Part shown: piece by piece, positions 6,815-63,642 of the stretch
How the letters are laid out: the number at the start of each line of letters is the position of its first letter
Position numbering within the stretch: position 1 is the stretch's first letter
Source of the DNA: an uncultured Sphingomonas sp.
GTDB lineage: Bacteria > Pseudomonadota > Alphaproteobacteria > Sphingomonadales > Sphingomonadaceae
Assembly (NCBI RefSeq): GCF_913777625.1
Contig: NZ_CAJYTI010000010.1
Coordinates: 175,095 to 239,094 of the forward strand
DNA length: 64,000 bases
Direction: 5' to 3'
The notes under the pieces: model-generated
The model's database searches: none
The model's input: only the letters and a program-made list of their open reading frames with translations
What the model was told of the DNA's origin: nothing
Position numbers and translations under genes: made by a program

Positions 6815-6823
6815 ATTATAGAA
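6815..6823 (-). promoter_or_regulatory. TYCTATAA -10-like motif
   Basis: Minus-strand TTCTATAAT upstream of the ORF starting at 6784. Confidence 0.55.
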
Positions 6824-6844
6824 CGATTGCGCAGGAAACGGATA

Positions 6845-7897
6845 TCAGTGCAGCGCGGCGCTGCTCTGCACGGCGGCAGCGACGGCCACGACCTCGACGG
6901 TATCGCGGTTCGCCTCGGCCGCCACCACCGCCTCGACGCTCGCCGGATGGATCGCGACGACGCTGGAGAGCAGGTTGTGGGGCTGGCTGGCGTCCGGCAG
7001 GATCGGGGTGACGCTGCGGGCCGGGGCCGGCTGGCGGCGCTTGGCGGTGGCGGGCTCGCCATATTCGGCCATCACCGAGAAGCGGGGGTCGGCGGCGGCG
7101 ATCTCGGCGATCACCTTGGCGGCGCGCTTGGTGATCTGGCGGACGCGCTCCTTGGTCACGCCGGTCTCGAGCGACAGATCGTCGAGCGTGGCGGTCTGGA
7201 ACACGCGGCGGGCGACGATCTCGCGGTCGCGCTCCAGCTTGGCTTCGAGCTTCTCCAATTCGGTCGGATCGATGCCGTGGGTGGCGGTGCGGAGGCGCGG
7301 GCCTTCGCGGCGCAGCGCGGCTTCTTCCCGCTTCGGACGGGGGCGGCGGCGGAGCTGCTCGATGCCCACCTTGCGGAGATGGTCGACATAGGCCTCGATC
7401 AGCGAGGAGATCGCGCCGTCGGCCAGGTAATCCGACGCGGCGCTCTCGGTACGCTCCAGGGCGTCCTCGTCCTCGATCATCGCCTCGGGCGACATCTCGT
7501 CGCCATCCGCCGAGGTGACCATCGCGCTGAGCGAAACGGTGGTGGCTTCGACCTTCTTCGCGGAGGGGCGCTGATCGGTCATCAGGCGGAAGCGCAGGCT
7601 CTGCAGTTCGCCGCGGATCTGCCAGTTCACGAAGGTGGTGAACTGCGCCTTTTCCGGCTCATAGGCCTGGATGGCACGGTGCACGGCGATGGCGCAGCAC
7701 TGCTCGGCATCGTCCCAGTGCGCGGTCAGGCCGTACTGGCGGATGAAGTGGCGGATGCGCGGTGCGATGAGCTTGAGAATGCGAGCGAAGGCCCGATCGA
7801 CTTCGGCGCGCTGACGGGCAGTCTGCTTGCTGTCCTTCGGCGAGTTCTCGATGACGGTTTGGACTGCGGCCTCGAGAGCGATCGTGATCTTCGACAT
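6845..7897 (-). CDS. Sigma70-family (group 3-like) RNA polymerase sigma factor, atypical
   Basis: Region 2 AIQAYEPEKAQFTTFVNWQIRGELQS, region 3.2-like VSLSAMV...MIED, region 4.2 HTH TLDDLSLETGVTKERVRQITKRA. Confidence 0.8.
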   Translation of the reverse strand: MSKITIALEAAVQTVIENSPKDSKQTARQRAEVDRAFARILKLIAPRIRHFIRQYGLTAHWDDAEQCCAIAVHRAIQAYEPEKAQFTTFVNWQIRGELQSLRFRLMTDQRPSAKKVEATTVSLSAMVTSADGDEMSPEAMIEDEDALERTESAASDYLADGAISSLIEAYVDHLRKVGIEQLRRRPRPKREEAALRREGPRLRTATHGIDPTELEKLEAKLERDREIVARRVFQTATLDDLSLETGVTKERVRQITKRAAKVIAEIAAADPRFSVMAEYGEPATAKRRQPAPARSVTPILPDASQPHNLLSSVVAIHPASVEAVVAAEANRDTVEVVAVAAAVQSSAALH

Positions 7898-7949
7898 TCG
7901 TATTCCCCTGGTTCAGCGCCGGTCCGATCGTTCCGGCGCCGTCGACAGG

Positions 7950-8091
7950 GGCAGATTTCGCCTGAAACCTTTAAAGGAGTGCTAATCGCGGGCTTAGGTA
8001 GTTTTCCGCAAAGGACCCCCGACCTTTATAGCAGTTGCGATTCGCAACGTGGGCCAAGTGCCTGAAAAAATGATGGTTAATCGCCGTTCAG
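7950..8091 (-). promoter_or_regulatory. Sigma-factor promoter region: ftr-like box (7950-7962), TGCTATAAA (8025-8033), CtrA-like half-match (8076-8091)
   Basis: GGCAGATTTCGCC; minus-strand CTATAAA; minus-strand CTGA-N7-TTAAC. Confidence 0.45.
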
Positions 8092-8133
8092 CATGTGCGC
8101 TAACGACGCTTCTCGCGGCCGGAAATGGCGGAT

Positions 8134-9168
8134 TTACGAGGAAAATTTTTCCGGTTGGATGTGCCGGTCGATGAATTGCAGTAACCATTCCCGATGGGCA
8201 CGGGTGGCGTCGCCGGCACTGGCGATGCGCTGTTCTGCAGCCGATCCGCCGATCTGGGCGGCGAGCAACTGGCGGGCACGGCCCGCGTCAATCCCGCCGG
8301 CGAGAAATTTTCGCGCATCGCCCAGCCCCAAATGGTGGCTGAGATAGGCGGCCTTGGCCAAGGTTTCCGAGTCGGCGCGCACGTTGAGCCCGGATGATTC
8401 GAGCTTATGCAAATTGTTGCGGGCCATATCTGCGACGGTGAGAATCGACGCCTGCGGATCGTAGCGCAACGCCAGCAACTCGCTGCGCCGGCTGGGATCG
8501 ACCTTGCCGTTCTCCTTCAGCCAGCCGCGCGCCTTGGCGACGTCGTTCAGCCAGGTGCCGCTCTGTTCGGCGAGTCCCTGCCAGGTGCCGCTGAGGAACT
8601 GGCCCAGCCCCGCCGCGCTCGAGCGCGGGTTGCGGGAGAGCGGGTTCCAGCTGCCGTCATGGCCCTTGCCGGCTTCGGCGTTGACGATTGCGGCGAGCGC
8701 ATTGGCAGGCACGCCGCTCCGTGCCTCGGCCGCCGCCAGCGCATCGGCGTAGCGGCTGTTGGCGCCGAGCGCGAGCGCACCGGAGGTGCCGCCGGCGGCG
8801 ACCCCGGACGCAGGGGCGGAGGCCATGGCGGCCGGCGGCGCCGCGATTGCCCGGGCGCGCTCGGCCGTCAACGGCGCCTTGGGCGCGACGGCTGCGTCCT
8901 GGGCGTCGTCGTGACATGAACAGGCGCATTGGCAGTTGCAGCGGCCCTTGGACGAACGCGGCGCCTGGGTGCCGAGCAGTTCGAGCAACGAGTCCATCTG
9001 CATGTCCGAACCCGGGCCGAGCGGCGAGCGGGTCTTGCCCGCTTCGCGGTCGCCGTCGCCGAGCGCGGCGCGCCAAAGCCGGGTCGAGAGCTCGGACTGC
9101 GCCTGGGCGTAGATCACGTTGGCGCGCTGGGCCGGCGTGAGCGCGGCGAGGTCGGTACGGTGGATCAT
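8134..9168 (-). CDS. Lytic transglycosylase (SLT-like), probable flagellar peptidoglycan hydrolase, with a Cys-rich linker
   Basis: AAIVNAEAG (catalytic Glu), SSAAGLGQFLSGTW, YLSHHLG; ATGA overlap with the fliJ-like gene. Confidence 0.8.
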   Translation of the reverse strand: MIHRTDLAALTPAQRANVIYAQAQSELSTRLWRAALGDGDREAGKTRSPLGPGSDMQMDSLLELLGTQAPRSSKGRCNCQCACSCHDDAQDAAVAPKAPLTAERARAIAAPPAAMASAPASGVAAGGTSGALALGANSRYADALAAAEARSGVPANALAAIVNAEAGKGHDGSWNPLSRNPRSSAAGLGQFLSGTWQGLAEQSGTWLNDVAKARGWLKENGKVDPSRRSELLALRYDPQASILTVADMARNNLHKLESSGLNVRADSETLAKAAYLSHHLGLGDARKFLAGGIDAGRARQLLAAQIGGSAAEQRIASAGDATRAHREWLLQFIDRHIQPEKFSS

Positions 9169-9596
9169 GCAGCCTTCACCGGCATCCGCTTGCGCTCGCG
9201 CAGGAAGCGCGCCGCGGCAATGTCATCAATCGCCGCCTGTTCGGCGGCTTCGGCCTCGCGCTCGGCATCGGCGCGGAAGCGCTCGGCGGCGCTTTCGATC
9301 GCGCGCAGCGTGCCAAAGGCCTCGCGCGCCTGTTCGCGCAGCTGCAGCAGGCGGTCCTGTTCGGCCGCGACTTCCTGGCCGAGCCGGGTCTGGGCGTGCT
9401 TGGCCGTGGCCAGCCAGGCGTCCGAGGCAAAGGGCAGCGCGTGGGCGAGCATCCGCTCCTCGCGCATCCGCTCGACGAGCGTGCGGGCCTGCTGCTCCAT
9501 CTCGGCGATGCGCTCGATCGAGGCGCCGATCGCGACCTTGAGGTCGTCGACGCTACGCTGCTGCATCCGCAGTGCGGTGTCGAGCGGCGTCCTCAT
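9165..9596 (-). CDS. fliJ: FliJ-like flagellar export chaperone
   Basis: 143-aa coiled-coil protein immediately downstream of fliI. Confidence 0.65.
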
Positions 9597-10954
9597 GCGG
9601 CGAGACCCACGTCATGGCCCGGCTCGCCCGCGGCGGCACCGGAGAGGATCGCGGCGAGTTCGGCGAACGCCGCCTCGGCATGGCCCTGGTCGTTCTTGCC
9701 CTGGTTGAGCAGCGCCTCGATCCGCGGCGCGAGCGCCACGGCGCGGTCGACCTCGGGTGAAGATCCCGCCTTGTAGGCGCCCAGCCGCACCATCTCTTCC
9801 ATGTCGGCATAGGTCGACAGGAGCTTGCGCGCCGCGATGCGGACGTCGTTCTGCTCTGGCTCCAGGCAATGGGGCAGGGTCCGCGACACGGACTTGAGCA
9901 CGTCGATCGCGGGGTAGCGGCCGCGCTCGGCGATCGCGCGGCGCATCACGACGTGGCCGTCGAGGATGCCGCGCACCGCGTCGGCGACCGGCTCGTTATG
10001 ATCGTCGCCGTCGACGAGGACGGTGAACAGGCCGGTGATCATGCCCTGGCCGGGGGCGCCGGGGCCGGCGCGCTCCAGCAGGCGCGGCAGCTCGGCGAAG
10101 ACCGTGGGAGTATAGCCCTTGGTCGCAGGCGGCTCGCCCGAGGCAAGGCCGATCTCGCGCTGCGCCATCGCGAAGCGGGTGACCGAGTCCATCAGGCAGA
10201 GCACGTTGAGGCCCTGGTCGCGGAAATGCTCGGCGACGGCCAAGGTCGTCCAGGCGGCCTGGCGGCGCATCAGCGCGGGTTCGTCCGAGGTGGCGACGAC
10301 GACGACCGAGCGGGCCATGCCTTCGGGCCCCAGATCGTCCTCGATGAATTCCTGCACTTCGCGGCCGCGTTCGCCGATCAGGCCGATCACTGCGACGTCG
10401 CACTGTGTCCAGCGCGCGAGCATCGACAGCAGGACCGACTTGCCCACGCCCGAACCCGCGAACAGGCCGAGCCGCTGGCCGCGGCAGAGCGGCACGAAGG
10501 TATCGAGGCAGCGCACCCCGGTCTCGATCCGCTCCGCCACGCGGGCGCGGCCGGCAGCGGCGGGGGGCGAGGCCTTGATCGGCTGCGGGTCGGCGCCGTT
10601 GGCGAGCGGACCCTGTCCGTCGACCGGCCGGCCGAGACCGTTGATCATGCGCCCGAGCCATGCCTTGGAAGGGCGCACGGTGAACTGGCCCGCGCCCAGC
10701 TCGGCGATCGCGCCCAGGCCGACGCCCTGCGGATCGACGAAGGGCAGGCACAGCGCCACGCCGCGATCGAGCGCGGTGACTTCGGCTTCCACCTTGCCCG
10801 AGGGCGACTGGATTTCGACGCGGCTGCCGATCTGGGCAACGCCGGTCAGCCCTTCGACTTCGATCAGCGCGCCGCGCACCGCCACCACGCGCCCGAAGCG
10901 GCGATCCGGAACCATCTCCCGGATTGCACGTGCGGCACTGGCGAGCGTTTGCAT
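9593..10954 (-). CDS. fliI: Flagellar export ATPase
   Basis: [45 protein letters not shown]; start ATG 10954, downstream of the flbT stop. Confidence 0.95.
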
Positions 10955-10968
10955 CGCGGCGGCGTCCT

Positions 10969-11373
10969 TCAGGCGGCCTGGGTGGCGCTCTGGTCGGCGG
11001 TGGCGGCGTCTTCCAGCGCGATCACCTCGCGAGCGGCGGCGAGCGCCTTGTAATATTCGCCCTGGGCGAGTTCGTTGGCGAAGCGGATGCACAGCTCGCT
11101 CGCCTGCGGCGTGCCGAGCGTGGTGATCACCAGGCTGATCAGCTGGACGATGGCATCCTGATGCGCGCTGCGGCCTGCCGGATCGATATAGGCCAGCATG
11201 GTCGCGAAATAGAGCTGGCGGGCAGGCGTGGTCGCTTCCTCGGGCCGCATCACTTCGCGACCGCGCAGGATCGATACCATATTCTCTACGGCAATCTGGG
11301 TACGACCGACGGCGCGCAACACGGCGCCGTTGACGATCGCTTTTTCACCGTCGCGGAGCGTGATGCGAAGCAT
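10969..11373 (-). CDS. flbT: Flagellar biosynthesis regulator FlbT
   Basis: [18 protein letters not shown]...[12 protein letters not shown]...[12 protein letters not shown]. Confidence 0.9.
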
Positions 11374-11403
11374 GGCACTGGCCTTTCGATAAGCGTTCCT
11401 AAA

Positions 11404-11519
11404 CTTATAGCGACGTTTGCAGCGCGCGGTGCGAATACCCGGCAAATTTTGCCGCCTCCCGTGCGCGGACAGGCAATTTCGCCCTATCGATTTGGGCCGG
11501 CCCGCCACCCCTCTACAAT
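11404..11519. promoter_or_regulatory. Divergent flbT/flgE control region with two ftr-like palindromes and two -10-like motifs
   Basis: Minus CTATAAG 11404-11410; GGCAAATTTTGCC 11441-11453; GGCAATTTCGCCC 11472-11484; plus CTACAAT 11513-11519. Confidence 0.6.
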
Positions 11520-11570
11520 AAAGACGTCGCCGGCGTGGGGATCGCGCGGGCATCTCGAGGAGTTTTGAAC

Positions 11571-12878
11571 TTGAGCCTCTATTCCGCTCTTTACGCTGGC
11601 GTTTCCGGGCTGAGCGCGCAGTCGAGTGCCATGGCCACGGTTGCCGACAACATCACCAACATCAACACCGTCGCCTATAAGGGCGTCGAGGCCCAGTTCC
11701 GCACGCTGGTGACCGATGGTCGCGCGTCGTCGAGCTACTCGGCCGGTGGTGTCGCGGCTTCGCCGATCGCCGAGGTCTCCAAACAGGGGCTGCTCCAGGC
11801 TTCGGGCAGCAGCACCGATCTTGCCATCGATGGCGGCGGCTTCTTCATCACCCGCAGCGGCCTCACGCAAAGCGACCCGGTCGCCTATACCCGGGCCGGC
11901 TCGTTCAAGCCGGACGAAGAAGGCTATCTGCGCAATTCCTCGGGCCAGTATCTCTATGGCTGGCGCCTGGATGCCACGGGCGGCTACACCAACACCGGCA
12001 ACCTCGACGCGCTGACGCCGGTGCGGCTGAGCGATCTGGTCGGCACGGCGGCGCCCACCACCAAGCTGCAGGCCCGCATCAACCTCCAGTCGGACGCCAC
12101 GATTTCGTCCGCCGCATCCACCTACACCGCGGGGCAGATGGCCTCGGGCGCGGTGACCCCCAGCTTCACCCGCTCGTTCACGGTCTATGACTCGCAGGGC
12201 GGCAGCCATCAGATGAACATGTCGTTCCTGAAGACGGCGGCGAACACCTGGAAGGTGGAGAACTACCTGGTTCCCGCCAGCGACACGACCGCCGCCGGCG
12301 GCGTCGTCAGCAGCGGCACCGTTCAGTTCAACGGCGACGGCAGCCTGAACAAGACCGCCTCGACCGCGGCGCTGTTCAGCCCGCTCACCATCAACTACAC
12401 CAACGGCGCCAGCTCGGTGCCGATCGACATCGAACTGGGTGACAATGGCAGCATCAACGGCCTGACCCAGTTCGGCCAGCCTTCGTCGCTGATCTCCGGC
12501 GGTGCCGATGGCGGCATCCTGGGCAACATCGCCTCGACCGAAGTGTCGAAGGACGGCGTGGTCAGCGCGATCTTCGACGACGGCTCGACCCGCAAGGTCT
12601 TCCAGCTGCCGATCGCGACCTTCCCGAACCCGAACGGCCTGACCCGCGTGTCCGGCAACTCCTATTCGGCCAATCGCTCGTCGGGATCGATGACGATGAA
12701 CCCGCCGGGGCAGCTCGGCGCCGGCAAGCTGTCGTCGAACACGCTGGAGGCATCGACCGTCGATCTGGCGGGCGAGTTCACCAACATGATCCGCTTCCAG
12801 CGCGCCTACAGCGCATCGTCGAAGATCATCACCACGGTCGACGACATGCTGCGCGAAGTCAGCGATCTGAAGCGCTGA
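11571..12878 (+). CDS. flgE: Flagellar hook protein
   Basis: TTG start with GAGGAG RBS; ADNITNINTVAYK, TDLAIDGGGFF, YTRAGSF, LEASTVDLAGEFTNMIRFQRAYSASSKII. Confidence 0.95.
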   Translation: MSLYSALYAGVSGLSAQSSAMATVADNITNINTVAYKGVEAQFRTLVTDGRASSSYSAGGVAASPIAEVSKQGLLQASGSSTDLAIDGGGFFITRSGLTQSDPVAYTRAGSFKPDEEGYLRNSSGQYLYGWRLDATGGYTNTGNLDALTPVRLSDLVGTAAPTTKLQARINLQSDATISSAASTYTAGQMASGAVTPSFTRSFTVYDSQGGSHQMNMSFLKTAANTWKVENYLVPASDTTAAGGVVSSGTVQFNGDGSLNKTASTAALFSPLTINYTNGASSVPIDIELGDNGSINGLTQFGQPSSLISGGADGGILGNIASTEVSKDGVVSAIFDDGSTRKVFQLPIATFPNPNGLTRVSGNSYSANRSSGSMTMNPPGQLGAGKLSSNTLEASTVDLAGEFTNMIRFQRAYSASSKIITTVDDMLREVSDLKR

Positions 12879-12906
12879 CGACCACTGAGGCCGGGGGACG
12901 CACGAC

Positions 12907-15012: not shown

Positions 15013-15025
15013 GGGAGCTGACCCG

Positions 15026-15934: not shown

Positions 15935-16031
15935 TCGACTGGATTTATCATGCGGGTGGCGCAGGCTGTAAGGTCTGCGTCATCTCCGCCGCGTAGCATC
16001 CGCACCGAACGAATATTCGGGAGGCTGGGGG

Positions 16032-18927: not shown

Positions 18928-19003
18928 GGGTCCGTAGCTCAGTCGGTAGAGCAAGCGACTTTTAATCGAGAGGTCCCGGGTTCGAATCCCGGCGGACCCA
19001 CCA
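18928..19003 (+). tRNA. tRNA-Lys(UUU)
   Basis: 76 nt, perfect 7-bp acceptor stem, D-arm, TTCGAAT T-loop, anticodon TTT, encoded CCA; two purine mismatches in the anticodon stem. Confidence 0.95.
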
Positions 19004-19220
19004 CCGAAAGCCCTCGAAACATAGATTTTCTGACGCTCGATGCCTCTCTGCGCGGGGGCATTCCAACACGCGTTTTGACGTTGGGCGCAGGCCGCGACGA
19101 TTGGCGGGACCGCGCTGCCGACCTCCGCATCAATAGTGCGGGACGCGGCACAAAGGAGTTGAGACTATATATCCTACGGGATATCGCCGCTTGTTTCCTC
19201 GTTGAAAGAAGCGGATTTTC

Positions 19221-21389
19221 ATGTCGCGTCGCGTGTTTCTCGCCACTACCGCCCTTGTCTTGCTGCCGCTGTCCGCCTTGGCCGATCCTCAGTCGGACGG
19301 CCCTGGGGACAACGCGCCCGCGCAGGCCAAGGATGCTGCGCCGGCCCAGCAGGGCGCGACGATCATCGTCTCCGCCCCCTATCGCCAGAGCGAGACCGAC
19401 GTGCTGTCCGGCACCTCGGTCGTTACCGGCGCGGAACTGACCCGCAGCCTGCGCCCGACGATCGGCGAGACGCTGGCGCACCAGCCTGGCGTATCGGCGA
19501 GCTCGTTCGGGCCCAGCGCCTCGCGGCCGATCCTGCGCGGCTTCCAGGGCGAGCGCGTGCGCGTGCTGACCGACGGCATCGGCTCGATCGACGTCTCGAA
19601 TACCTCGGCCGACCATGCGGTGATCATCGATCCGCTGCTTGCCGAGCGGGTGGAGGTGTTGCGGGGCCCTTCGGCCCTGCTGTTCGGATCGTCGGCGATG
19701 GGCGGCGTGGTCAACGTGATCGACAGCCGGATACCGCGTGCGGTGCCGGAAAAGGGGTACCGGCTGAGCAGCATCGCGACCTATGGGTCGGCGGCCAATG
19801 AGCGTTCGGTCGGCGGGGCGGGCGACGTTGCGGTGGGCAGCCACCTCGTGCTGCACGCCGACGGCTCCTATTCCAAGTCGGACGATCTCAAGATCGGTGG
19901 CTATGCCCTGACCCCGACCAAGCGGCGCGAGGCGCTGGCCAGTGCAGGCCTGCCGGCCGATCCCTCCGACCCCGATCCGATCGACTTCGCCGCCAATGCC
20001 GCGGTCAGGAACCGCCTGCCGAACACCGCCGCCACGACGTGGACGGCGGGCGCCGGCGCGGCGATCGTGACCGACAATGGCACGCTGGGCGTGGCCTATA
20101 GCCATTATGACAGCCTGTACGGGGTACCGATCCGCTTCGCCACCGAGCCGGGCGAAGGCCAGGAATCGCCGCGGCTGAGCGTGGTCCAGAACCGGCTCGA
20201 TCTGCGCGCCGAGGCCGATACCGGCGGCAGCGTCCTCCAGAAGGTGCGGCTACGCGCCGGCTATGCCGCCTATCGCCATTTCGAGCTGGCGCCCGACGGC
20301 AGCACCGGCACCGCCTTCTACAACAAAGGGCTGGAGGGCCGGCTGGAGCTGGTCCAGGCCGATCACGGTGCCTGGAAGGGCGCGAGCGGCGTGCAGGTGT
20401 TCGCGCGGGACTTCGACGTGAAGGGCGACGAGGCGTTCCTGCCCAAGAACAAGACCGAGCAGGTGGGACTGTTCACGCTCCAGCAGCTCGATCTCGGCGC
20501 GATCAAGGCTGAGGCGGGCCTGCGCTACGAGTTCACCGATCTTTCGGCCGATCCGGTGCAGGGCGATCTGCGCTTCTTCGGCGGGAGCCGCCATTTCGAG
20601 GCGCTCTCGGGTTCGGTCGGCGCTTCCTATGGCCTCAGCCACGACGTGCGGATCGGCCTCAACCTCTCGCACACCGAGCGTGCACCCTCGGCGGAGGAGC
20701 TGTTCGCCAACGGCGCCCATGCCGGCACCGAGGCCTATGAGCTGGGCAGCCCCGATTTTCGGCTCGAAAAGAGCTGGGGGCTGGAGGCGACGCTGCACGC
20801 GCATGGCGACGGCTACAGCTTCGACGCTTCGGCCTATTACACCTGGTTCTCCAACTATATCAGCGATGCCGAGACCAATTCGGCGGTCTGTGCGGCGGCC
20901 GCGGCGCCGAGCGGGCGGACGGTGGAACTGCCCTGCTTCCAGTTCACCCAGCGCGACGCGCGCTATTACGGGTTCGAGGCCGAGGGATCGGTGCGACTGG
21001 CGCAGGCGGGCGGGTACACGATCAACCTCGACGCGCTGGGCGATTATGTCCACGCCAATATCGTCGACCAGGGCCCGGCGCCGCGCATCCCGGCGATGCG
21101 CGTGCTCGGCGGCATCGAGGCGCAGTCCGATGCGGTGACCGGCCGCCTGGAGGCGGAGCATGTCTTCGCGCAGGATCGCATCGCGGCGTTCGAGACGCGC
21201 ACCGCGCCCTATACCATGGTCAACGCGACGCTGAGCCTGAAGCCCTTCCCGACCATGCCGGGCACCACGCTCACGCTATCCGCCAACAACCTGTTCGACG
21301 TCGATGCCCGGCGGGCGAGCAGTTACCTCAAGGACTATGCGCCGCTCGCGGGCCGCGACCTGCGGGCGACGCTGCGCTTCAGCCTCTAG
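19221..21389 (+). CDS. TonB-dependent receptor, ZnuD-like plug
   Basis: SRPILRGFQGERV, SADHAVIIDP, VEVLRGPSALLFGSSAMGGVVNVID, NNLFD; beta-barrel C-terminus. Confidence 0.92.
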   Translation: MSRRVFLATTALVLLPLSALADPQSDGPGDNAPAQAKDAAPAQQGATIIVSAPYRQSETDVLSGTSVVTGAELTRSLRPTIGETLAHQPGVSASSFGPSASRPILRGFQGERVRVLTDGIGSIDVSNTSADHAVIIDPLLAERVEVLRGPSALLFGSSAMGGVVNVIDSRIPRAVPEKGYRLSSIATYGSAANERSVGGAGDVAVGSHLVLHADGSYSKSDDLKIGGYALTPTKRREALASAGLPADPSDPDPIDFAANAAVRNRLPNTAATTWTAGAGAAIVTDNGTLGVAYSHYDSLYGVPIRFATEPGEGQESPRLSVVQNRLDLRAEADTGGSVLQKVRLRAGYAAYRHFELAPDGSTGTAFYNKGLEGRLELVQADHGAWKGASGVQVFARDFDVKGDEAFLPKNKTEQVGLFTLQQLDLGAIKAEAGLRYEFTDLSADPVQGDLRFFGGSRHFEALSGSVGASYGLSHDVRIGLNLSHTERAPSAEELFANGAHAGTEAYELGSPDFRLEKSWGLEATLHAHGDGYSFDASAYYTWFSNYISDAETNSAVCAAAAAPSGRTVELPCFQFTQRDARYYGFEAEGSVRLAQAGGYTINLDALGDYVHANIVDQGPAPRIPAMRVLGGIEAQSDAVTGRLEAEHVFAQDRIAAFETRTAPYTMVNATLSLKPFPTMPGTTLTLSANNLFDVDARRASSYLKDYAPLAGRDLRATLRFSL

Positions 21390-24701: not shown

Positions 24702-24710
24702 TTTATAGGA
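24702..24710 (-). promoter_or_regulatory. TYCTATAA -10-like motif
   Basis: Minus-strand TCCTATAAA 28 nt upstream of ATG 24673. Confidence 0.5.
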
Positions 24711-27841: not shown

Positions 27842-27897
27842 AGCTTCCCTGGACCTTCCGAAATATCGGCCGCGACGTCCGCACGTCCGATTTCCCT

Positions 27898-27930
27898 CTA
27901 TTATAGAACCGTCACCCGGCAATTTCTGCC
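27898..27930. promoter_or_regulatory. Divergent fliL/flgF control region: palindromic CTATTATAG plus ftr-like box
   Basis: CTATTATAG 27898-27906; GGCAATTTCTGCC 27918-27930. Confidence 0.6.
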
Positions 27931-30757: not shown

Positions 30758-30841
30758 TTTACCGAAACTTTACCTTAATCATCCGGTAACCATCAAAATT
30801 TTCAGGAGAAATTTTGATGGAGGCGATTTTCTTCCCACAAT
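30758..30841 (+). promoter_or_regulatory. Flagellin upstream region: tandem CtrA-like boxes, 12-bp inverted repeat, -10-like motif
   Basis: TTTA-N7-TTTA 30758-30772; TTAA-N7-GTAAC 30775-30790; CCATCAAAATTT-N7-AAATTTTGATGG 30790-30820; CCACAAT 30835-30841. Confidence 0.5.
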
Positions 30842-30931
30842 GATCGTGCAGGGCGCAGCAAGCGCCCGGTCGAGGGTCGGCGCTTCCGGCCCGGGTCGCA
30901 GAAGCGGCTCTATTCCAAGAAGGAAATCACC

Positions 30932-35031: not shown

Positions 35032-35040
35032 ATTATAGAG
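35032..35040 (-). promoter_or_regulatory. TYCTATAA -10-like motif
   Basis: Minus-strand CTCTATAAT 44 nt upstream of the fliK ATG. Confidence 0.55.
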
Positions 35041-37172: not shown

Positions 37173-38507
37173 TCAAGGGGCGGGCGAGACGGCGATGCCC
37201 GCCTCGATGAAGGTGCGCAGCTTGTTGCGCATCGTGCGCACCGAGATGCCGAGGATGTTCGATGCCGAGGTGCGGTTGCCGTGGCAGCGCTCGAGCGTCT
37301 GGAGGATCAGCTCGCGCTCCACCTCTTCCACCGTGCGGCCGACCAGGCTGTTGATGTCGAGCGCGTTCGCATCGGCATTGAGGTCGGCAAGCGGGGTGCC
37401 GTCGGCACGCACCAGGTCGCCCGGCGTGATCGCGGCGCCGCGGCCGAGCAGGATGGCGCGATGCACCGTCTCGTCCAGTTCGCGGATGTTGCCCGGCCAG
37501 CTGTAGCGCTGGAGCAGCGCCAGTGCCTCGTCGGTGAAGGCGCGCTCGGGCACGCCGTCGACTTCGGCATGGCGCTTGGCGAAATAGCGGGCGAGGGCGA
37601 GGATGTCCTCGCCGCGGGCGCGGAGCGGCGGCACCTCGACGCGGACCAGCCCCAGCCGGACCAGCAGATCGGCGCGGAACGAACCGCTGTCGACCAGCGC
37701 GTCGAGGTTCAGGCTCGATGTCGCGATCAGCCGCGCATGGAACGGGATCAGCTCGTTGCCCGCCAGGCGGCGGAACTGCTGCTTCTGGAGCACGTCGTGC
37801 AGTTTGGCCTGGAGCGCGGGCGACAGCATGCCCACTTCGCGGATCAGCACGGTGCCATGGCCGGCCTTTTCGAGCCGACCGATGCGGCGGGCGACCGCGC
37901 CCGGAAAGGCGCCGGCCTCATGGCCGAACAGCTCGGATTCGAGCACGTCGGGGGCAACCCCGGCGCATTCGGCGACCAGCATCGGCTGCGGACGGCCCGA
38001 GGCATCGTGCACGGCACGCGCCATCATTTCCTTGCCGCTGCCCTTCTCGCCGGTGATCAGCACCGGCGCGCTGCTGGGGGCGACGCCCGCGGCAAGCGAG
38101 AGCGCGCGGGCGAGGGCGGGGTGAACGCCGATCCAGGCCGGGGCCTTGCGCTCGACGACCGAGGCAATGGCCGCCGCGATCAGTTCGCGTTGCGGCGGAA
38201 GCGGTACGTAATCGCGGGCGCCGGCGCGGATCGCCGCAACCGCGCGCTCGGCCGGGGCATCGATGCCGCAGGCCAGCACCGCGATGGTGAAGCGTTCGCT
38301 GCGGATGCTCGCCATGAAGCCGGCGATGTCCGCCTCGACGTCGATCATCACCAGATCTGCGCCGCCCTGGCGCAGCTGGATCAGGCCGTCGGCCGGCGTG
38401 TCGGCCATCGCCACTTCGGCGCCGGCGCTGCGCGCCAGCTCGGCGGCGAGGCGGAACTCGCTGCCCGGCGCACCGATCAGGAGCATGCGTATGGAGCTGG
38501 CCATCAA
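37173..38507 (-). CDS. flbD: FlbD-like enhancer-binding protein (REC-AAA+-HTH) with degenerate sigma54-activation motifs
   Basis: FlbD-like receiver (VLACGIDA...YVPLPP), Walker A GEKGSGKE, GAFPGA instead of GAFTGA, Walker B VLIRE, intact HTH GNRTSASNILGISVRTMRNKL; fliN-flbD-flhA synteny. Confidence 0.88.
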   Translation of the reverse strand: MMASSIRMLLIGAPGSEFRLAAELARSAGAEVAMADTPADGLIQLRQGGADLVMIDVEADIAGFMASIRSERFTIAVLACGIDAPAERAVAAIRAGARDYVPLPPQRELIAAAIASVVERKAPAWIGVHPALARALSLAAGVAPSSAPVLITGEKGSGKEMMARAVHDASGRPQPMLVAECAGVAPDVLESELFGHEAGAFPGAVARRIGRLEKAGHGTVLIREVGMLSPALQAKLHDVLQKQQFRRLAGNELIPFHARLIATSSLNLDALVDSGSFRADLLVRLGLVRVEVPPLRARGEDILALARYFAKRHAEVDGVPERAFTDEALALLQRYSWPGNIRELDETVHRAILLGRGAAITPGDLVRADGTPLADLNADANALDINSLVGRTVEEVERELILQTLERCHGNRTSASNILGISVRTMRNKLRTFIEAGIAVSPAP

Positions 38508-40538: not shown

Positions 40539-40590
40539 TTTATAGAAAGGGGGCGGAGCGGCAGTTTCTGCCGGGTGGGAATTTTTTGCC
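40539..40590 (-). promoter_or_regulatory. fliF promoter region: TTCTATAAA plus two ftr-like boxes
   Basis: Minus CTATAAA 40539-40545; GGCAGTTTCTGCC 40560-40572; GGAATTTTTTGCC 40578-40590. Confidence 0.6.
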
Positions 40591-46167: not shown

Positions 46168-46213
46168 CCCTGCAGAAAATGGTCCGCGCGCACCCGCAAG
46201 GCCGCGCTCTCCT

Positions 46214-46270
46214 CTATTATAGGATTGTTAGGGGAAGGGACGGATCGGATCATGGTTAATTATTCTTCAA
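46214..46270. promoter_or_regulatory. Divergent fliG/flaY control region: palindromic CTATTATAG plus CtrA-like box
   Basis: CTATTATAG 46214-46222; minus TTGA-N7-TTAAC 46255-46270. Confidence 0.55.
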
Positions 46271-52441: not shown

Positions 52442-52450
52442 CTTATAGGA
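52442..52450 (-). promoter_or_regulatory. TYCTATAA -10-like motif
   Basis: Minus-strand TCCTATAAG 38 nt upstream of the flgI ATG. Confidence 0.55.
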
Positions 52451-54062: not shown

Positions 54063-54101
54063 GAGGTCCGGGCGGCGGGTTTACTCCGCCGCCTGGACCT
54101 C
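54063..54101. terminator. Hairpin between convergent genes
   Basis: GAGGTCCGGGCGGCGG...CCGCCGCCTGGACCTC. Confidence 0.6.
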
Positions 54102-54722: not shown

Positions 54723-54766
54723 GGCGTTGGTCTCCCACTGGCCGCGTACCTGCGGCCTCTACGCAT

Positions 54767-54775
54767 ATTATAGGA
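54767..54775 (-). promoter_or_regulatory. TYCTATAA -10-like motif
   Basis: Minus-strand TCCTATAAT 44 nt upstream of the PilZ gene start. Confidence 0.55.
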
Positions 54776-54815
54776 TGAATGACCGTTCAGCTTGGCATCG
54801 GTAGTGTTACAGTGC

Positions 54816-55268: not shown

Positions 55269-55277
55269 GGGAAACCC

Positions 55278-56123: not shown

Positions 56124-56124
56124 G

Positions 56125-56981: not shown

Positions 56982-56982
56982 A

Positions 56983-57372
56983 TCAGGTCAGCTCGCCAAA
57001 GACGCGTTCGATCTTTTCCTTCAGCGCCGCCGGCGCGAAGGGCTTGACGACATAGTTGTTCACGCCCAGCGCCGCCGCCTTCTGCACGACCTCGCGGTCG
57101 GACGAGCCGGTGAGCATGATGAACACGGTCTTGCCGATCACCGGGTCGGCGCGAACCGCCTCCAGGAACTGCAGCCCGTCCATCTCGGGCATGTTGTAGT
57201 CGGAGATCACCAGATGGACGCGGTCGCTCTTGATGGCGGACAGCGCCTCGGGGGCGCTGGCCTTGTCGCGAACGTCCTTGAACCCCAGGTCCTGCAGCGC
57301 ACGACGGATCATCGCCCGCATACTGGTCTGATCATCAACGACCATCACCTTGATTTGTGATGCAGCGGGCAT
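56983..57372 (-). CDS. cheY: Chemotaxis response regulator (CheY2-like)
   Basis: VVDDQ, ISDYNMPEMDG, MLTG, YVVKPF. Confidence 0.93.
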   Translation of the reverse strand: MPAASQIKVMVVDDQTSMRAMIRRALQDLGFKDVRDKASAPEALSAIKSDRVHLVISDYNMPEMDGLQFLEAVRADPVIGKTVFIMLTGSSDREVVQKAAALGVNNYVVKPFAPAALKEKIERVFGELT

Positions 57373-57374
57373 TG

Positions 57375-58421: not shown

Positions 58422-59305
58422 GCCCTGGACTCCGGCTTTTGGTAAATAGTGTGCCCGCACGAGCGCATCTTGCTCGCCGCGGGGCCGATCAGCCGTTCCG
58501 AATGACCGATATAGAGGAAACTCCCCGGGGCGAGCTGCTCGACGAAGCGATGCTCCAGCTCTTCCTTCGCGGGATCCCCGAAATAGATCATGACGTTACG
58601 GCAGAAAATCACATCATAGGCGGCTTTCAGCGGCCACGGTTCAAACAGGTTGAGTACCTTTGCGGTGACCAGCTGGCGCGCCTCGTCGGCCATGATGAAG
58701 CCACCTTGCGTGGGCTTCATCCAGCTCGAGCGATACGGTTCCGGCACGCCCGCTGCGACGTTCTCGGCATAGACGCCCCGCTGCACGGATTCGACCACAT
58801 GCGGCGCGATGTCCGTTGCCAGCAGTCGCACGTCGGCGTTGCGCAACCACGATGCATGGCTGCGGTTCGGCCCGAGCAGGCACATCGCGATCGTGTAGAC
58901 TTCTTCCCCCGACGAGCAGCCTGCCGACCAGATCCGGATCGGCCCCTGCTTGCGCTGGAGCGTGGGGATCACGGTCTCGCGGAAATGGTCGAAATGGTGC
59001 GGCTCGCGGAAGAAATGCGTGTGGTTGGTGGTCAGCGCCACCACCATCGCATGGCGTTCCTCGGCATCGTTGTGCACCAGGTCGACATAATCGCAGAACC
59101 GGGTGAGACCGAACTTGCGCAGCCGGCGAGCGAGACGCGACTGGACGAGCGTCGTCTTCGCCTCGCTGAGCGAGATACGCGCATCCTGGTACATGATCGC
59201 GGCAATGGCCTGGAAGTCGCGCGGCGTGAGATCCGCCGTCTGACCCGGGGCCATCGCGGTCGCGGCGCCGGCGGACGCCGCGCTGGCGCCCCCGGCGGCG
59301 CTCAT
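58418..59305 (-). CDS. cheR: Chemotaxis methyltransferase
   Basis: TTNHTHFFRE, IWSAGCSSGEEVY, ATDI, DVIFCRNVMIYF. Confidence 0.96.
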   Translation of the reverse strand: MSAAGGASAASAGAATAMAPGQTADLTPRDFQAIAAIMYQDARISLSEAKTTLVQSRLARRLRKFGLTRFCDYVDLVHNDAEERHAMVVALTTNHTHFFREPHHFDHFRETVIPTLQRKQGPIRIWSAGCSSGEEVYTIAMCLLGPNRSHASWLRNADVRLLATDIAPHVVESVQRGVYAENVAAGVPEPYRSSWMKPTQGGFIMADEARQLVTAKVLNLFEPWPLKAAYDVIFCRNVMIYFGDPAKEELEHRFVEQLAPGSFLYIGHSERLIGPAASKMRSCGHTIYQKPESRA

Positions 59306-59796
59306 GCGGCCAGATCCAGATGCTTGGTAAGGCTCAGCGCGTTCAGGTCGAGCAGCAGCACCATGCTGCCATTCTCGTCCCGCGTGCCGTCCTTGGCGCG
59401 GGTTGCGATGCGGACGAGGCCCGCGATCACGCTTTCCTCAAGCGCCGTCTCCACCGCGGGCGCCGGCTGGATCTCGTTGACGTTGATGCCGACGATGTCG
59501 TTCACCTCGTCCACCAGGAAGCCCGCCTGCTTGCCCATGATGTTGACGACCAGGATGCACGAGCGGGCGTGCAGCTGGCTCGGCTCCCAGCCCAGCCGCT
59601 CGGCCAGGCCGACCACCGGGATCACGTTGCCGCGCAGGTTGGTCACGCCCTTGATGAAGCTGGGCACGTTGGGAAGCGGCGTCGGCTCGTCCCATTCGCG
59701 GATTTCGATGAGCGCGCTCATGTCGATCCCGAAAATCTGCTTGGCGAGCGAGAAGGTAACGATCTTACGATCATTGGCGGTGTCGGGGGTGCTCAT
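59302..59796 (-). CDS. cheW: Chemotaxis coupling protein
   Basis: TPLPNVPSFIKGVTNLRGNVIPV, GFLVDEV. Confidence 0.95.
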   Translation of the reverse strand: MSTPDTANDRKIVTFSLAKQIFGIDMSALIEIREWDEPTPLPNVPSFIKGVTNLRGNVIPVVGLAERLGWEPSQLHARSCILVVNIMGKQAGFLVDEVNDIVGINVNEIQPAPAVETALEESVIAGLVRIATRAKDGTRDENGSMVLLLDLNALSLTKHLDLAA

Positions 59797-62066
59797 GCTG
59801 CCAGTCCTTTGGGCGTGAAACGGGTAGGCGAGGAAACCAGCGCCTCGATATCGAGGATCAGCGCGATCGAGCCGTCGCCGAGGATGGTCGCGCCACCCAG
59901 GCCGCGGATCGGATGCAGGTTCTGATCGAGGCTCTTGATCACGACTTCGCGGCGGTCATCGATGGTGTCGACGACCAGGCCGACCTTGCCCGAGCTTTCG
60001 CTCTCGACGATCACCACCAGCGAGTCCTCGATGGCGCGGTCGTCGTTGAGGCCGAAGATCTCGGTCGCACGCTTCACCGGCAGATATTCGCCGCGCATGT
60101 CGATCACTTCGTGGTCGGGTGCGGTACGCTTCACCTGGCCCGGCTCGGGCTGGATCGTCTCCAGCACGTGCGTCAGCGGCAGCACGAAGCGCTGGCCGGC
60201 GAGCCGCACGATCATGCCGTCCAGAATGGCCAGCGTGAGCGGCAGGATCATCGTGAAGGTCGTGCCTTCGCCCGGCACCGAGTGGATCTCGACGCGGCCG
60301 CCCAGGGCTTCCACGTTCGACCGCACCACGTCCATGCCGACGCCGCGACCCGAGATGTTCGAGATCTTCTCCGCGGTGGAGAAGCCCGGCGCGCAGATCA
60401 GCTGGTCGATTTCCTCGTTCGTCAGCACCGCATCGGCGCTGATGATGCCCTTTTCGACTGCCTTGGCGCGGACGCGTTCGCGGTTGATGCCGCGGCCATT
60501 GTCCGCGACGCGCACGAAGATCCGGGCGCCCTTCTGCTCGGCCGAAAGCTTGATCGTGCCCGCCGGCTCCTTGCCGGCGGCGATCCGCTCCTCGGCGCTT
60601 TCCAGGCCATGGTCCGCGGCGTTGCGGATCATGTGGGTCAGCGGATCGCCGATCTTCTCGATCACGCCCTTGTCGACTTCGGTCGTCTCACCGATCGTCT
60701 CGAGGTTGATCTGCTTGCCGGTTTCCACCGAAAGGTCGCGGAGCATGCGCGGCACGCGGCTGAAGGCCTGCCGGATCGGCTGGGCGCGCAGCGACATGAC
60801 GTTGTCCTGGATCTGCCGGGTGAGGCGGGCCAGTTCGGGCAGTTCGACGCGCTGGCGATCGGCCGGCGACAGCCGGTCGGCCAGAATCGAGTTGCGGATC
60901 ACCAGCTCGCCGACCAGGTTGAGCAGCAGGTCGAGCTTGACCAGGTCGACGCGGATGGTCTGCGCGGCTTCGTTGACAGGCTTGGCCGGGCCGCCGGCGC
61001 CACCGCCTGCGCCGCCACCACCACCAGGACCACCGGTACCGCCGCCACCGGCGGGCGGACTTCCCGACGCCGCGGCGGGTTCCGGCGCAATCGCAACCGG
61101 TGCCGGCGCAGCCACAGGTGCGGGGGCAGGCTCGGACGCCGGAGGTGCGCCCAGGTCCATGAAGTCGTCGACCGTCGCAGTGACGGGCACGAACGGAATC
61201 TCGTCGCCGTCCAGCGCCGCTTCCGGTGCGCCTGCGGGCGGGGTCGCCTCGCCCATCCGCTTGATCTCGATGATCGAGTCCGGTGCGACGAAATCGAAGC
61301 AGTCGGAAAGGTCGCTCTCGGGCAGCTCGGCCGGGGCGTGTATGACCCAGGTGACGTAGCTGTCTTCCGGATCGATCTCGCGCAGGGACGGGATGGTGCT
61401 GGTGTCGACGGATGCGACACGCGCGCCCAGACCTTCGAGTTCGCGGACCGTCAGCAACGGCTCGCCGGCATTGGCCAGCGCGGCGCGTGACGGCTTGAAG
61501 CGGACTTGCCAGCCGGCAGCCTCGTCATCACCCGGACCATCCAGATCGGCAAGCGAAACGCCGACCGGGCGGAAGCCGAACTCGTCTTCCTCTTCCTCCA
61601 TCGCGGGCGCCGGCGCGGGGGCAGGCGCTGCGGGGGCAGGGGCGGGCGCGGCAGCAGCCGGGGCGTCGCCATCGGGCACGCCCTTGTTGGCGAGCACTTG
61701 CTCGAGCGCGCTCAGCGCAGCGCCGTCGTTCGGCCGCGAGGCGTTGCCCTTGGCCGCCTCGACATGGTCCGACAGCACGTCGAACGAGCTCAGCATCACC
61801 CGGATCACGCCGGGCGTAGGGACGATTTTCCCGGCACGCACTTCGTCGAGCACGTTCTCGAACTTGTGCGCGAAGGCGGTCAGGTCCGAATGGCCGAAGG
61901 CGCCGGCGCCACCCTTGATCGAGTGGATCGCGCGGAACACGCCGGCGATGGTCTCGCCGGACAGGTCGCCCGCCTGCATCGCCGACAGGCCTTCCTCGGC
62001 CGTCGTGAGGCCTTCAGTGCACTCTTCGAAGAAGATTGCCTGGATATCGTCGAATTCGTCGCTCAC
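59793..62066 (-). CDS. cheA: Chemotaxis histidine kinase
   Basis: Hpt FRAIHSIKGGAG, HMIRNAADHG, DNGRGI, GFST...SGRGVGMDVV, CheW-like domain. Confidence 0.97.
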   Translation of the reverse strand: MSDEFDDIQAIFFEECTEGLTTAEEGLSAMQAGDLSGETIAGVFRAIHSIKGGAGAFGHSDLTAFAHKFENVLDEVRAGKIVPTPGVIRVMLSSFDVLSDHVEAAKGNASRPNDGAALSALEQVLANKGVPDGDAPAAAAPAPAPAAPAPAPAPAMEEEEDEFGFRPVGVSLADLDGPGDDEAAGWQVRFKPSRAALANAGEPLLTVRELEGLGARVASVDTSTIPSLREIDPEDSYVTWVIHAPAELPESDLSDCFDFVAPDSIIEIKRMGEATPPAGAPEAALDGDEIPFVPVTATVDDFMDLGAPPASEPAPAPVAAPAPVAIAPEPAAASGSPPAGGGGTGGPGGGGGAGGGAGGPAKPVNEAAQTIRVDLVKLDLLLNLVGELVIRNSILADRLSPADRQRVELPELARLTRQIQDNVMSLRAQPIRQAFSRVPRMLRDLSVETGKQINLETIGETTEVDKGVIEKIGDPLTHMIRNAADHGLESAEERIAAGKEPAGTIKLSAEQKGARIFVRVADNGRGINRERVRAKAVEKGIISADAVLTNEEIDQLICAPGFSTAEKISNISGRGVGMDVVRSNVEALGGRVEIHSVPGEGTTFTMILPLTLAILDGMIVRLAGQRFVLPLTHVLETIQPEPGQVKRTAPDHEVIDMRGEYLPVKRATEIFGLNDDRAIEDSLVVIVESESSGKVGLVVDTIDDRREVVIKSLDQNLHPIRGLGGATILGDGSIALILDIEALVSSPTRFTPKGLAA

Positions 62067-62428
62067 GGGCAGACGCGGCGGATCGCCGCCCCCAGCTTGG
62101 TGGCCTCGAACGGCTTGGTGATCCAGCCGGTGGCACCGGCGGAGCGGGCGCGCTGCTTCTTCTCGTCCGAGAATTCGGTCGAGAGCACGAGGATCGGCAC
62201 GCCCTTGAACTCAGGCACCTGGCGTACTGCCTCGATCAGCTCGAACCCGTCCATCTTCGGCATGTTGATGTCGGTGATGAGCAGGTCGGGCTTGACCTCG
62301 TGCATGCGCTCCAGGCCATGCTGACCATCGTTCGCGCTTTCGATGCGAAAGCCCTGCGCGGTCAGCGACGTCTTGAGCAGCATGCGCATGCTCGCGGAGT
62401 CATCGACGGTAAGGATCAGCTTGGTCAC
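62063..62428 (-). CDS. cheY: Chemotaxis response regulator (CheY1-like)
   Basis: LTVDDS, ITDINMPKMDG, LVLSTE, GATGWITKPF. Confidence 0.93.
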   Translation of the reverse strand: MTKLILTVDDSASMRMLLKTSLTAQGFRIESANDGQHGLERMHEVKPDLLITDINMPKMDGFELIEAVRQVPEFKGVPILVLSTEFSDEKKQRARSAGATGWITKPFEATKLGAAIRRVCP

Positions 62429-62739
62429 AGAAGGTCTCCGGTATCAATGCCGACCGCCGCTGCGAGCTGGCAACGGTTCACACGATCGGTGAAGGCAGTG
62501 CTGGGGTTGAGGATGGTGAAGGCCTTGCCGAGCTTTTCGGCTTCCGCCTTGGCTGCGACGAGCAACTGGAGGACCGCCTGGCCAACGCTTTCGACCTGCG
62601 AGGCATCCACCTCGACCGGGCCGTCGCCGTCGACCGCCTGGATCAGGCGGGTCTGAAGATCCGCGGCCGTCACGGTCGAACCGTGCGCGGGGAGCGCGAC
62701 AGCGCCCTCGGCCTCAAGCGGTTGCAGGGGAATTTCCAT
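62425..62739 (-). CDS. STAS-domain chemotaxis protein (CheS / Caulobacter CheX-like)
   Basis: VEVDASQVESVGQAVLQLLVAA STAS pattern directly before cheY1-cheA. Confidence 0.8.
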   Translation of the reverse strand: MEIPLQPLEAEGAVALPAHGSTVTAADLQTRLIQAVDGDGPVEVDASQVESVGQAVLQLLVAAKAEAEKLGKAFTILNPSTAFTDRVNRCQLAAAVGIDTGDLL

Positions 62740-63598
62740 TCTTGGCCTCGTCGAGAGCGGATTCGAGTTGCTGGAAGGTCGGCGCGTACGCGGAAGGCGT
62801 CATGCGACGGGCGATCTCGATCGCGACCTGCACCGGCTGGTTCTGGGCGTAGGCGACGATCGCGGTCTTGATGATGGTGAAGGGCTTGGAGTCGCCCTCG
62901 ATGGTCTCCAGCAGCTTGGTGGCGAGCGGCGCGACCACGCAGTAGGAGAGCAGCACGCCCATGAAGGTACCGACCAGCGCGCCGCCGATCATCGCGCCGA
63001 GGATTTCGGTCGGCTGATCGATCGAGCCCATGGTCTTGATGACGCCGAGCACCGCGGCGACGATGCCGATGGCGGGAAGGCCGTCGGCCATCAGCTGCAG
63101 GGCGTGCTGCGGATGGGTTTCTTCATGGTGGTGCTTCTCGATGTCCGCTTCCATCGCTGCTTCCAGCTGGTGCGGATCCTCGAAGTTCACCGTCATCATC
63201 CGCAGATAGTCGCAGAGAAACTCGATCAGATGGTGATCGGCGAGCAGCCGCGGATAGGGCTTGAAGATGTCGCTTTCCTCGGGCTTGTCGAGGTGCGGTT
63301 CGATGCCGGTCGCGCCGCTCTTCTTGAACAGCGAGAGCAGGGTGAACATCAGCGTCAGCAGGTCGGTATAGTCGCTGGCCTTCCAGCGGCCGCCCTTGAA
63401 CGCGCGCATCAGGCCGGCGCCGGCCTTCTTCACCGTCGGCATCGAATTGCCGACGATGAAGGCGCCGATCGCGGCGCCGCCGATGGCCATCAGCTCGTGC
63501 GGCAGCGCCTCGGCAATAATCCCGAACTTGCCGCCCGACATGATGAAACTGCCGAACACGCAACCGAGAATGATGACGAAACCAACGGCGTTCAGCAT
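62714..63598 (-). CDS. motA: Stator protein MotA
   Basis: PHELMAIGGAAIG, ADGLPAIGIVAAVLGVI, GGALVGTFMG. Confidence 0.96.
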   Translation of the reverse strand: MLNAVGFVIILGCVFGSFIMSGGKFGIIAEALPHELMAIGGAAIGAFIVGNSMPTVKKAGAGLMRAFKGGRWKASDYTDLLTLMFTLLSLFKKSGATGIEPHLDKPEESDIFKPYPRLLADHHLIEFLCDYLRMMTVNFEDPHQLEAAMEADIEKHHHEETHPQHALQLMADGLPAIGIVAAVLGVIKTMGSIDQPTEILGAMIGGALVGTFMGVLLSYCVVAPLATKLLETIEGDSKPFTIIKTAIVAYAQNQPVQVAIEIARRMTPSAYAPTFQQLESALDEAKNGNSPATA

Positions 63599-63633
63599 GA
63601 CGAGCCTAAATTCTTTCCCTGGATGTTTCCAGA

Positions 63634-63642
63634 ATTATAGGA
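63634..63642 (-). promoter_or_regulatory. TYCTATAA -10-like motif
   Basis: Minus-strand TCCTATAAT 35 nt upstream of the motA ATG. Confidence 0.55.

Follow-up and report, generated by a model that had tools for sequence, protein, structure and literature searches.

A conserved CTATAA box upstream of flagellar and chemotaxis genes in Sphingomonas and a candidate sigma factor encoded in the same cluster

The flagellar cluster and its CTATAA boxes

The stretch of DNA analysed here, called the window (64,000 nucleotides (nt), positions 175095-239094 of contig C10), belongs to an uncultured Sphingomonas with a genome of 4.17 Mb and 67% G+C, which stands close to Sphingomonas elodea (97% identity in FlhA to the strain ATCC 31461). 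The window carries a flagellar cluster of the Caulobacter type, with flbD, fliX and flbT, and rpoN is present in the genome. The element in question is the hexamer CTATAA, which occurs in the window in 12 copies, 11 on the minus strand and one on the plus strand, the latter (11675) lying within flgE. The eleven minus-strand copies had been listed in an earlier note on this DNA; all of them are present, with every coordinate given there one base too low. It had also described them as intergenic and upstream of co-oriented starts, which by our own gene calls is true of all 11, at 31-128 nt. A T at -2 and a pyrimidine at -1, counted from the hexamer, were each recounted in 9 of the 11 boxes. The identities of the genes near the boxes were taken from Pfam and NCBIfam matches, with protein lengths in amino acids (aa):

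6816..6821, minus strand: CTATAA box, 31 nt 5' of the gene of a 170-aa hypothetical protein (6272-6784); kept in 12 of 14 orthologous regions
8026..8031, minus strand: CTATAA box, 128 nt 5' of the sigma-like gene; exact only in the closest relatives
11405..11410, minus strand: CTATAA box, 31 nt 5' of flbT (flbT-fliI operon); exact in 18 of 18 relatives
24703..24708, minus strand: CTATAA box, 5' of a small open reading frame (orf) of 63-72 aa (24455-24646/24673) and a 606-aa gene
27901..27906, minus strand: CTATAA box, 59 nt 5' of fliL (fliL-fliM operon); 14 of 15 relatives
35033..35038, minus strand: CTATAA box, 45 nt 5' of fliK; 9 of 9 relatives
40540..40545, minus strand: CTATAA box, 5' of fliF (fliF-fliN-flbD-flhA operon); 58 of 63 relatives
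46217..46222, minus strand: CTATAA box, 5' of fliG; 58 of 58 relatives
52443..52448, minus strand: CTATAA box, 39 nt 5' of flgI
54768..54773, minus strand: CTATAA box, 45 nt 5' of a PilZ-domain gene
63635..63640, minus strand: CTATAA box, 36 nt 5' of motA, with cheA and cheW next on the same strand

The exact copies are confined to one strand because the units for hook, rod and filament, which have weaker variants of the box (CTACAAT, CTATTAT, CCACAAT), happen to be encoded on the opposite one. Two of these variants, before flgE and fliC, had been reported previously and both were located:

11513..11519, plus strand: variant box CTACAAT, 52 nt 5' of flgE; CTACAAT in 13 of 18 relatives
27898-27904, plus strand: variant box CTATTAT facing flgF, overlapping the fliL box back-to-back
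30835..30841, plus strand: variant box CCACAAT, 5' of the flagellin gene fliC; family consensus TTCCCAnAATG
46214-46220, plus strand: variant box CTATTAT facing the orf914-flgB operon, overlapping the fliG box back-to-back

The two back-to-back pairs, fliL/flgF and fliG/orf914-flgB, share an identical 12-mer, CCTCTATTATAG, at 27895-27906 and 46211-46222, in which the putative -10 boxes overlap. The 5' region of the flagellin gene (30787-30931) contains, besides the variant box, a TAACCAT and a perfect 12-bp inverted repeat (CCATCAAAATTT...AAATTTTGATGG, 30790-30820), and the flagellin 5' leader is conserved across genera (GCCGCAGAAGCGGC...CCAAGAAGGAA); this leader could be a target of FlbT/FlaF.

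In dinucleotide shuffles of the window (n=100), CTATAA was found 1.37 times on average and 4 times at most, and none of the 100 reached 12. The whole genome holds 321 copies, which gives an expectation of 4.9 per 64 kb and an excess in the window at Poisson p=0.005, the raw density being only 2.4 times the genome average. Such a ratio, taken by itself, would suit a chance pile-up of an A+T-rich hexamer in the intergenic DNA of a genome of 67% G+C. However, this explanation is already refuted by the strict co-orientation of the boxes, by their invariance across genera despite diverging flanks (next section) and by their enrichment upstream of the cluster genes. With the genome-wide gene calls of a dicodon model (3710 genes, 89% coding), a co-oriented CTATAA was found in 11 of 32 upstream regions of the window and in 50 of 2472 elsewhere, a 17-fold enrichment (Fisher p=6e-11); an equal frequency upstream of non-flagellar genes, which had been named beforehand as the contrary outcome, was not what was found.

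Outside the cluster, the box precedes 9 of the 18 genes for methyl-accepting chemotaxis proteins (MCP) that have an upstream region, at 42-92 nt (p=1e-11), and one further, tenth, MCP gene has CTACAAT. Accordingly, the enrichment at the cluster and at the MCP genes marks the box as a feature of a motility and chemotaxis regulon. The che clusters on contigs C12, C19 and C41 are without the box, and the cheA and cheW of the window stand behind the motA box on the same strand. Other outside copies lie 5' of a FliN-like gene, of two GGDEF genes and one EAL gene, and of polysaccharide genes, which hints that genes of cyclic di-GMP (c-di-GMP) turnover and exopolysaccharide belong to the same regulon as the flagella. 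Among such box-bearing genes, the two GGDEF genes, the EAL gene, an alginate-export gene, a PgaC-like glycosyltransferase and a GT4 gene (genome C9:18673, C10:297303, C17:25503, C10:244063, C10:153354, C26:9759) can be listed; the GT4 gene has in addition a site similar to the ftr sites described below.

Conservation and geometry of the box

Orthologous promoters were compared in 75 loci, mostly of Sphingomonas and Novosphingobium, obtained by a search with FlhA; the comparison covers 40-60 genomes of these and related genera. The exact hexamer is kept at fliF (58/63), fliG (58/58), fliL (14/15) and fliK (9/9), with the columns flanking it down to 30-50% identity in the same alignments; in the neighbourhood of the sigma-like gene, compared in 20 genomes, it is kept at flbT (18/18) and at the 170-aa gene (12/14). 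The motif common to the genera is (A/T)TC-CTATAA-T(G/A), and its orientation is strict. In promoter numbering, the positions -13, -10, -9 and -8 are invariant across genera, as are the T at -12 and the A at -11, and a T at -7 is present in 6 of the 11 window boxes and in most boxes of other genera, the sequence of the box including TATAA(T). No -35 element shared with the box, including a TTGACA-like one at 16-18 nt upstream, appeared in the anchored alignments, as had been said of the window boxes before. The distance from the end of the box to the start codon is 31 nt at flbT and at the 170-aa gene, here and in the relatives, which is enough for a transcription start and a ribosome-binding site and too little for a separate core promoter as well. 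Such a pattern makes it very probable that CTATAA serves the flagellar and chemotaxis promoters as their -10, and the earlier view of an unusually uniform -10-like element common to the flagellar transcription units is supported.

The 5' regions of rpsF in 20 of the same genomes were used as a control. There, the -35 (CTTGCc) is kept and the -10 drifts (GCTAAG, GTACAG, CCATGG, GCATAG and others), so that the flagellar promoters are the reverse, with an invariant -10 and no -35. A CTATAA far upstream of rpsF was considered as its promoter and rejected, since it is not conserved and the real rpsF promoter lies nearer to the gene. Genome-wide anchoring on CTTG(A/C)N gave nearly no -10 signal, and no genome-wide RpoD -10 consensus was obtained from it. 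The leader of rpsF, presumably that of the ribosomal S6 operon, is strongly conserved across genera (GACAGCCGGAGGGGCG...GTCAGCGATCGGCC; L153-L172, genome C8:157655-157860).

The cluster-encoded sigma-like protein and the promoter types of orthologous genes

A candidate for the protein that reads the box is encoded within the cluster itself:

6845..7897, minus strand: 350-aa protein of the sigma-70 family, candidate reader of the box by Pfam, predicted fold and co-occurrence

The protein matches Sigma70_r4 with 28.9 bits (cut-off 24.1), its region 2 scores 19.7 bits, under the cut-off of 24, and it has no match to the NCBIfam models of FliA and RpoH. In the comparison with RpoS over regions 2.3/2.4 (FTTFVNWQIRGELQ aligned with FSTYATWWIRQTIE), the protein retains the melting tryptophan of region 2.3, and the residues reading -12 differ from those of RpoD/RpoS. 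The AlphaFold model (predicted local distance difference test, pLDDT, 72.8) gave four structure matches at E<=0.001, all of them mycobacterial SigA chains, and sigma factors through rank 23, with primary SigA and RpoS aligned over ~330 columns and standing above the extracytoplasmic-function (ECF) sigma factors and sigma-28. By its predicted model, the protein thus looks like a three-domain primary or group-2 sigma. All 43 genomes with this type of cluster carry its gene, on the contig of flhA, and none of 3 outgroups does; within a family sample, the sigma occurs only alongside the cluster, except for a shorter homologue, 43% identical, in one genus. Its public names are generic (NCBI: 'sigma factor-like helix-turn-helix DNA-binding protein'), and a literature search found no description of this sigma or of this box. 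Two to four paralogues of the cluster sigma (60-71% identical) occur in the genomes G152, G173, G169, G158 and G162, on other contigs or distant on the same contig. The 170-aa protein (6272-6784), encoded directly 3' of the sigma gene behind a box of its own, matches no family, and its position would suit an anti-sigma or a partner protein.

The NCBI name of the protein could also be taken to mean that TCCTATAA is a transcription-factor site, possibly bound by the sigma-like protein through its helix-turn-helix, and not a -10. Two arrangements would agree with this: the palindrome TCTATAATAGA at the fliL/flgF and fliG/orf914 pairs, and the spacer between orf344 and the sigma gene (window 7898-8133), which in distant relatives (L180, L181, L185, L189-L192) carries 1-3 tandem boxes in reversed orientation. 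The latter read (T/A)TATAGGA on the sense strand, ~22 nt apart, with TTAACC ~100 nt from the start codon, and close relatives have one co-oriented CTATAA instead; the reversed boxes could be antisense promoters or serve autoregulation. However, at two genes only 31 nt separate the box from the start codon, with no space for a separate core promoter, the box is strictly co-oriented at more than 20 genes, its 3' side has no further promoter element in common, the palindromes are accounted for by back-to-back divergent -10 boxes, and the protein has kept a region 2 with the melting tryptophan. A transcription-factor site is accordingly considered highly improbable beside the reading of CTATAA as a -10 element.

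In the window, no match to at least 8 of 11 positions of the sigma-54 promoter TGGCAC-N5-TTGC was found in any upstream region, canonical sigma-54 promoters being present elsewhere in the same genome, and the ingroup loci contain ~0 such motifs per 22 kb. One candidate, TTGGCCCACGTTGC 5' of the sigma gene, was rejected as a sigma-54 promoter for its wrong spacing. The comparison was made with an outgroup of 20 genomes of the same GTDB order that have FlbT and lack the cluster sigma, one of which (G080) is of the same family as the window genome. In these sigma-less genomes, TGGCAC-N5-TTGC stands 15-85 nt 5' of the fliC, flbT and flgI orthologues. Their fliF promoters, fetched separately as the outgroup FlbT loci had too few early genes, show ctaGGCAAnnTTTGCCtag (ftr) and then the CtrA box TTAAC-N7-TTTAC, with CTATAA in 0 of 18; raw CTATAA counts in the outgroup loci are uninformative because of their G+C of 40-58%. 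In the lineage with the cluster sigma, neither the sigma-54 promoters at fliC, flbT and flgI nor the CtrA box at fliF were found, so the same genes carry different promoter types in the two groups. A CtrA box (TTAA-N7-TTAA or TTAACCAT) was found at the promoters of the window only 5' of the sigma gene, of fliG and, as TAACCAT, of fliC, 31-42 nt from the box:

8073..8080, minus strand: TTAACCAT, CtrA half-site-like, 42 nt further 5' of the sigma-gene box
46252..46259, minus strand: TTAACCAT, 5' of the fliG box

A CtrA site as the identity of the box itself was rejected, since the CtrA sequences occur at only three promoters and apart from the box.

The enhancer-binding protein of the cluster has changed as well. 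FlbD is degenerate at both motifs in ~55 ingroup orthologues (GAFPGA, GAFLGA, GAFDGA, TAFPxA or a deletion for the sigma-54 contact motif, and RE, RN, RD or AD in Walker B), and the FlbD of the outgroup L076 is canonical (GAFTGA and DE). FlbD and the ftr-like sites of the cluster, called by their likeness to the ftr consensus, are as follows:

37173..38486, minus strand: FlbD homologue, with GAFPGA for GAFTGA and RE for the Walker B DE (LIREVG), HTH_8 kept
40560..40590, no strand: two ftr-like palindromes, GGCAGAAACTGCC and GGCAAAAAATTCCC, at least 14 nt 5' of the fliF box; ftr kept in outgroups
27918..27930, no strand: ftr-like palindrome GGCAGAAATTGCC, 11 nt 5' of the fliL box
11441..11483, no strand: a pair of ftr-like sites in the flbT/flgE spacer, ~36 nt from the respective boxes

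At the ftr sites that are kept, FlbD probably works now as a DNA-binding regulator and nothing more. The centres of these sites lie ~18-21 nt 5' of the box at fliF and fliL, near -30, which suggests repression, and ~36 nt 5' of it at flbT and flgE, near -48, which suggests activation; the sequences hence suggest that early units may be repressed and late units activated by a FlbD unable to contact sigma-54. One more ftr-like site, GGCAGATTTCGCC (7950-7962), falls within the sigma-gene leader, 3' of the CTATAA box and 5' of the start codon.

An alternative reader of the box as a -10 would be RpoD, a consensus-like extended -10 offsetting the missing -35, the specificity coming from FlbD, CtrA or others and the sigma-like protein of the cluster having some other role. 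The -10 of alphaproteobacterial RpoD promoters is typically CTATAT-like, in the type CTTGAC-N17-CTATAT, and the box resembles it in starting with CTATA; unlike it, the box has no -35 and an invariant A at the sixth position. TATAAT is contained in CTATAAT, exact CTATAA stands also 5' of housekeeping genes, ftr and TTAACCAT sites are present at some of the promoters, and since the structure matches of the cluster protein are primary-type sigmas, a similar -10 taste is to be expected for both. However, ftr and CtrA sites are both missing from most of the CTATAA promoters, which leaves nothing else to tie them into one regulon; at the true RpoD promoter of rpsF, in the same genomes, the -35 is conserved and the -10 varies freely; the positions -13, -10, -9 and -8 are invariant across genera, which RpoD is not known to require; and the sigma-less relatives have CtrA boxes and sigma-54 promoters at the same genes. 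The likeness to the alphaproteobacterial RpoD/RpoH -10 noticed earlier is fair as a resemblance, the opposite conservation at the rpsF housekeeping promoter favours the cluster sigma, and reading by RpoD is regarded as rather unlikely.

The reading of the box by the cluster sigma has several points against it. CTATAAT includes the primary-sigma consensus TATAAT, which makes RpoD a possible reader; of the 50 copies outside the cluster, about half stand 5' of housekeeping genes, e.g., aconitase, dnaE and ahpC; and the T at -7 is present in only 6 of the 11 window boxes. The sigma gene's own CTATAA is kept only in the closest relatives, and the reversed boxes of the distant ones are not explained by the model. 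Furthermore, the co-occurrence of sigma and box probably has one evolutionary origin and does not amount to independent events.

Proposed regulatory scheme and known flagellar systems

In the scheme proposed, (A/T)TC-CTATAA-T would be the -10 of the flagellar and chemotaxis regulon in those Sphingomonadaceae that have the alpha-type (flbT/fliX/flbD) cluster, with transcription starting ~7 nt 3' of the box and without a -35 element, and the cluster-encoded 350-aa sigma (6845-7897) would recognise it. The box is the sole element that all these promoters share, and RpoD is not specific to one regulon; the simplest model therefore has the cluster sigma reading the box, and such a reading is considered probable, with less assurance than the -10 identity of the box. 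The sigma gene has its own CTATAA and a CtrA-like TTAACCAT, on which a cascade from CtrA to the cluster sigma and from it to all CTATAA promoters is proposed; the TTAACCAT sites 5' of the sigma gene and of fliG and the TAACCAT at fliC fit such a cascade. In Sphingomonas sp. WG, where the genes stand in the same order, expression of most of them is raised along with that of ctrA; the paper in question, the only one found on flagellar regulation in the group, assumes the Caulobacter sigma-54 scheme (PMC8921679). The box would have replaced two ancestral types, at the late genes that of sigma-54 and at fliF that with the CtrA box, and FlbD, having lost the sigma-54 contact motif and the ATPase motif, would now act at the ftr sites. 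Of this, the enrichment, conservation and geometry of the box, the exchange of promoter type, the decay of FlbD and the co-occurrence with the sigma are observed in the sequences, and the -10 identity of the box, its reader and the roles of FlbD and CtrA are inferred. The chances are put at about even that a third kind of flagellar sigma, neither sigma-28 nor sigma-54, is at work in the Sphingomonadaceae with the alpha-type flagellum. It would be lineage-specific and primary-like and would need only the extended -10 TCCTATAAT; motility and chemotaxis as a whole would have passed to it from the sigma-54/FlbD and CtrA-box promoters, leaving FlbD as a sigma-54-independent repressor/activator at ftr.

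Flagellar hierarchies are textbook regulatory logic, and the known ones are based on sigma-28, on sigma-54 or on CtrA with RpoD; in kind, the present system is an alternative-sigma flagellar regulon. The FliA (sigma-28) promoter of enterics and many other bacteria is TAAA-N15-GCCGATAA. It was rejected for the boxes, as both TAAA and CGA are absent and the cluster sigma does not match the FliA model. The resemblance to the FliA regulon is in a dedicated sigma-70-family gene among the flagellar genes, whose product would direct transcription of the motA, che, MCP and flagellin genes from a strongly conserved -10 with ATAA at its end. Unlike there, no TAAA -35 is found here, the -10 is CTATAA and not CGATAA, the box stands also at the early genes fliF, fliG and fliL, and the cluster protein is not FliA by NCBIfam and resembles a three-domain primary or group-2 sigma.

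The hierarchy of Caulobacter crescentus, with CtrA and RpoD for class II, FlbD/FliX and sigma-54 for class III/IV, and ftr sites, is the other system for comparison. The common features are flbD, fliX and flbT, the ftr-like palindromes, the TTAACCAT sites, and FlbD in the fliF operon with ftr overlapping the fliF promoter (PMC3930126). In contrast to Caulobacter, the cluster here is without sigma-54 promoters, its FlbD has neither GAFTGA nor the Walker B aspartate, it contains a sigma gene in addition, and fliF has CTATAA where the outgroups have the CtrA box. Apart from flagella, relatives of the enhancer-binding proteins that are independent of sigma-54 include the NtrC of Rhodobacter capsulatus and TyrR. 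By analogy with them, FlbD may be an AAA+ regulator without GAFTGA working at sigma-70-type promoters; unlike them, it is a flagellar FlbD in which the Walker B aspartate has also been lost.

The whole Caulobacter-like flagellar regulon thus appears to have been switched in promoter class at orthologous genes, with a sigma gene gained and a sigma-54 activator decayed, which would make it a clean natural case of regulon rewiring. With the nine-base signature, genes of motility, chemotaxis and c-di-GMP may be predicted in Sphingomonas and Novosphingobium, genera of relevance in the plant phyllosphere, in bioremediation and in gellan and welan gum production.

Within the flagellar region, there is also a sequence that by its appearance is tRNA-gene-like (window 18930-19005), beside the gene of a TonB-dependent receptor (19233-21389).

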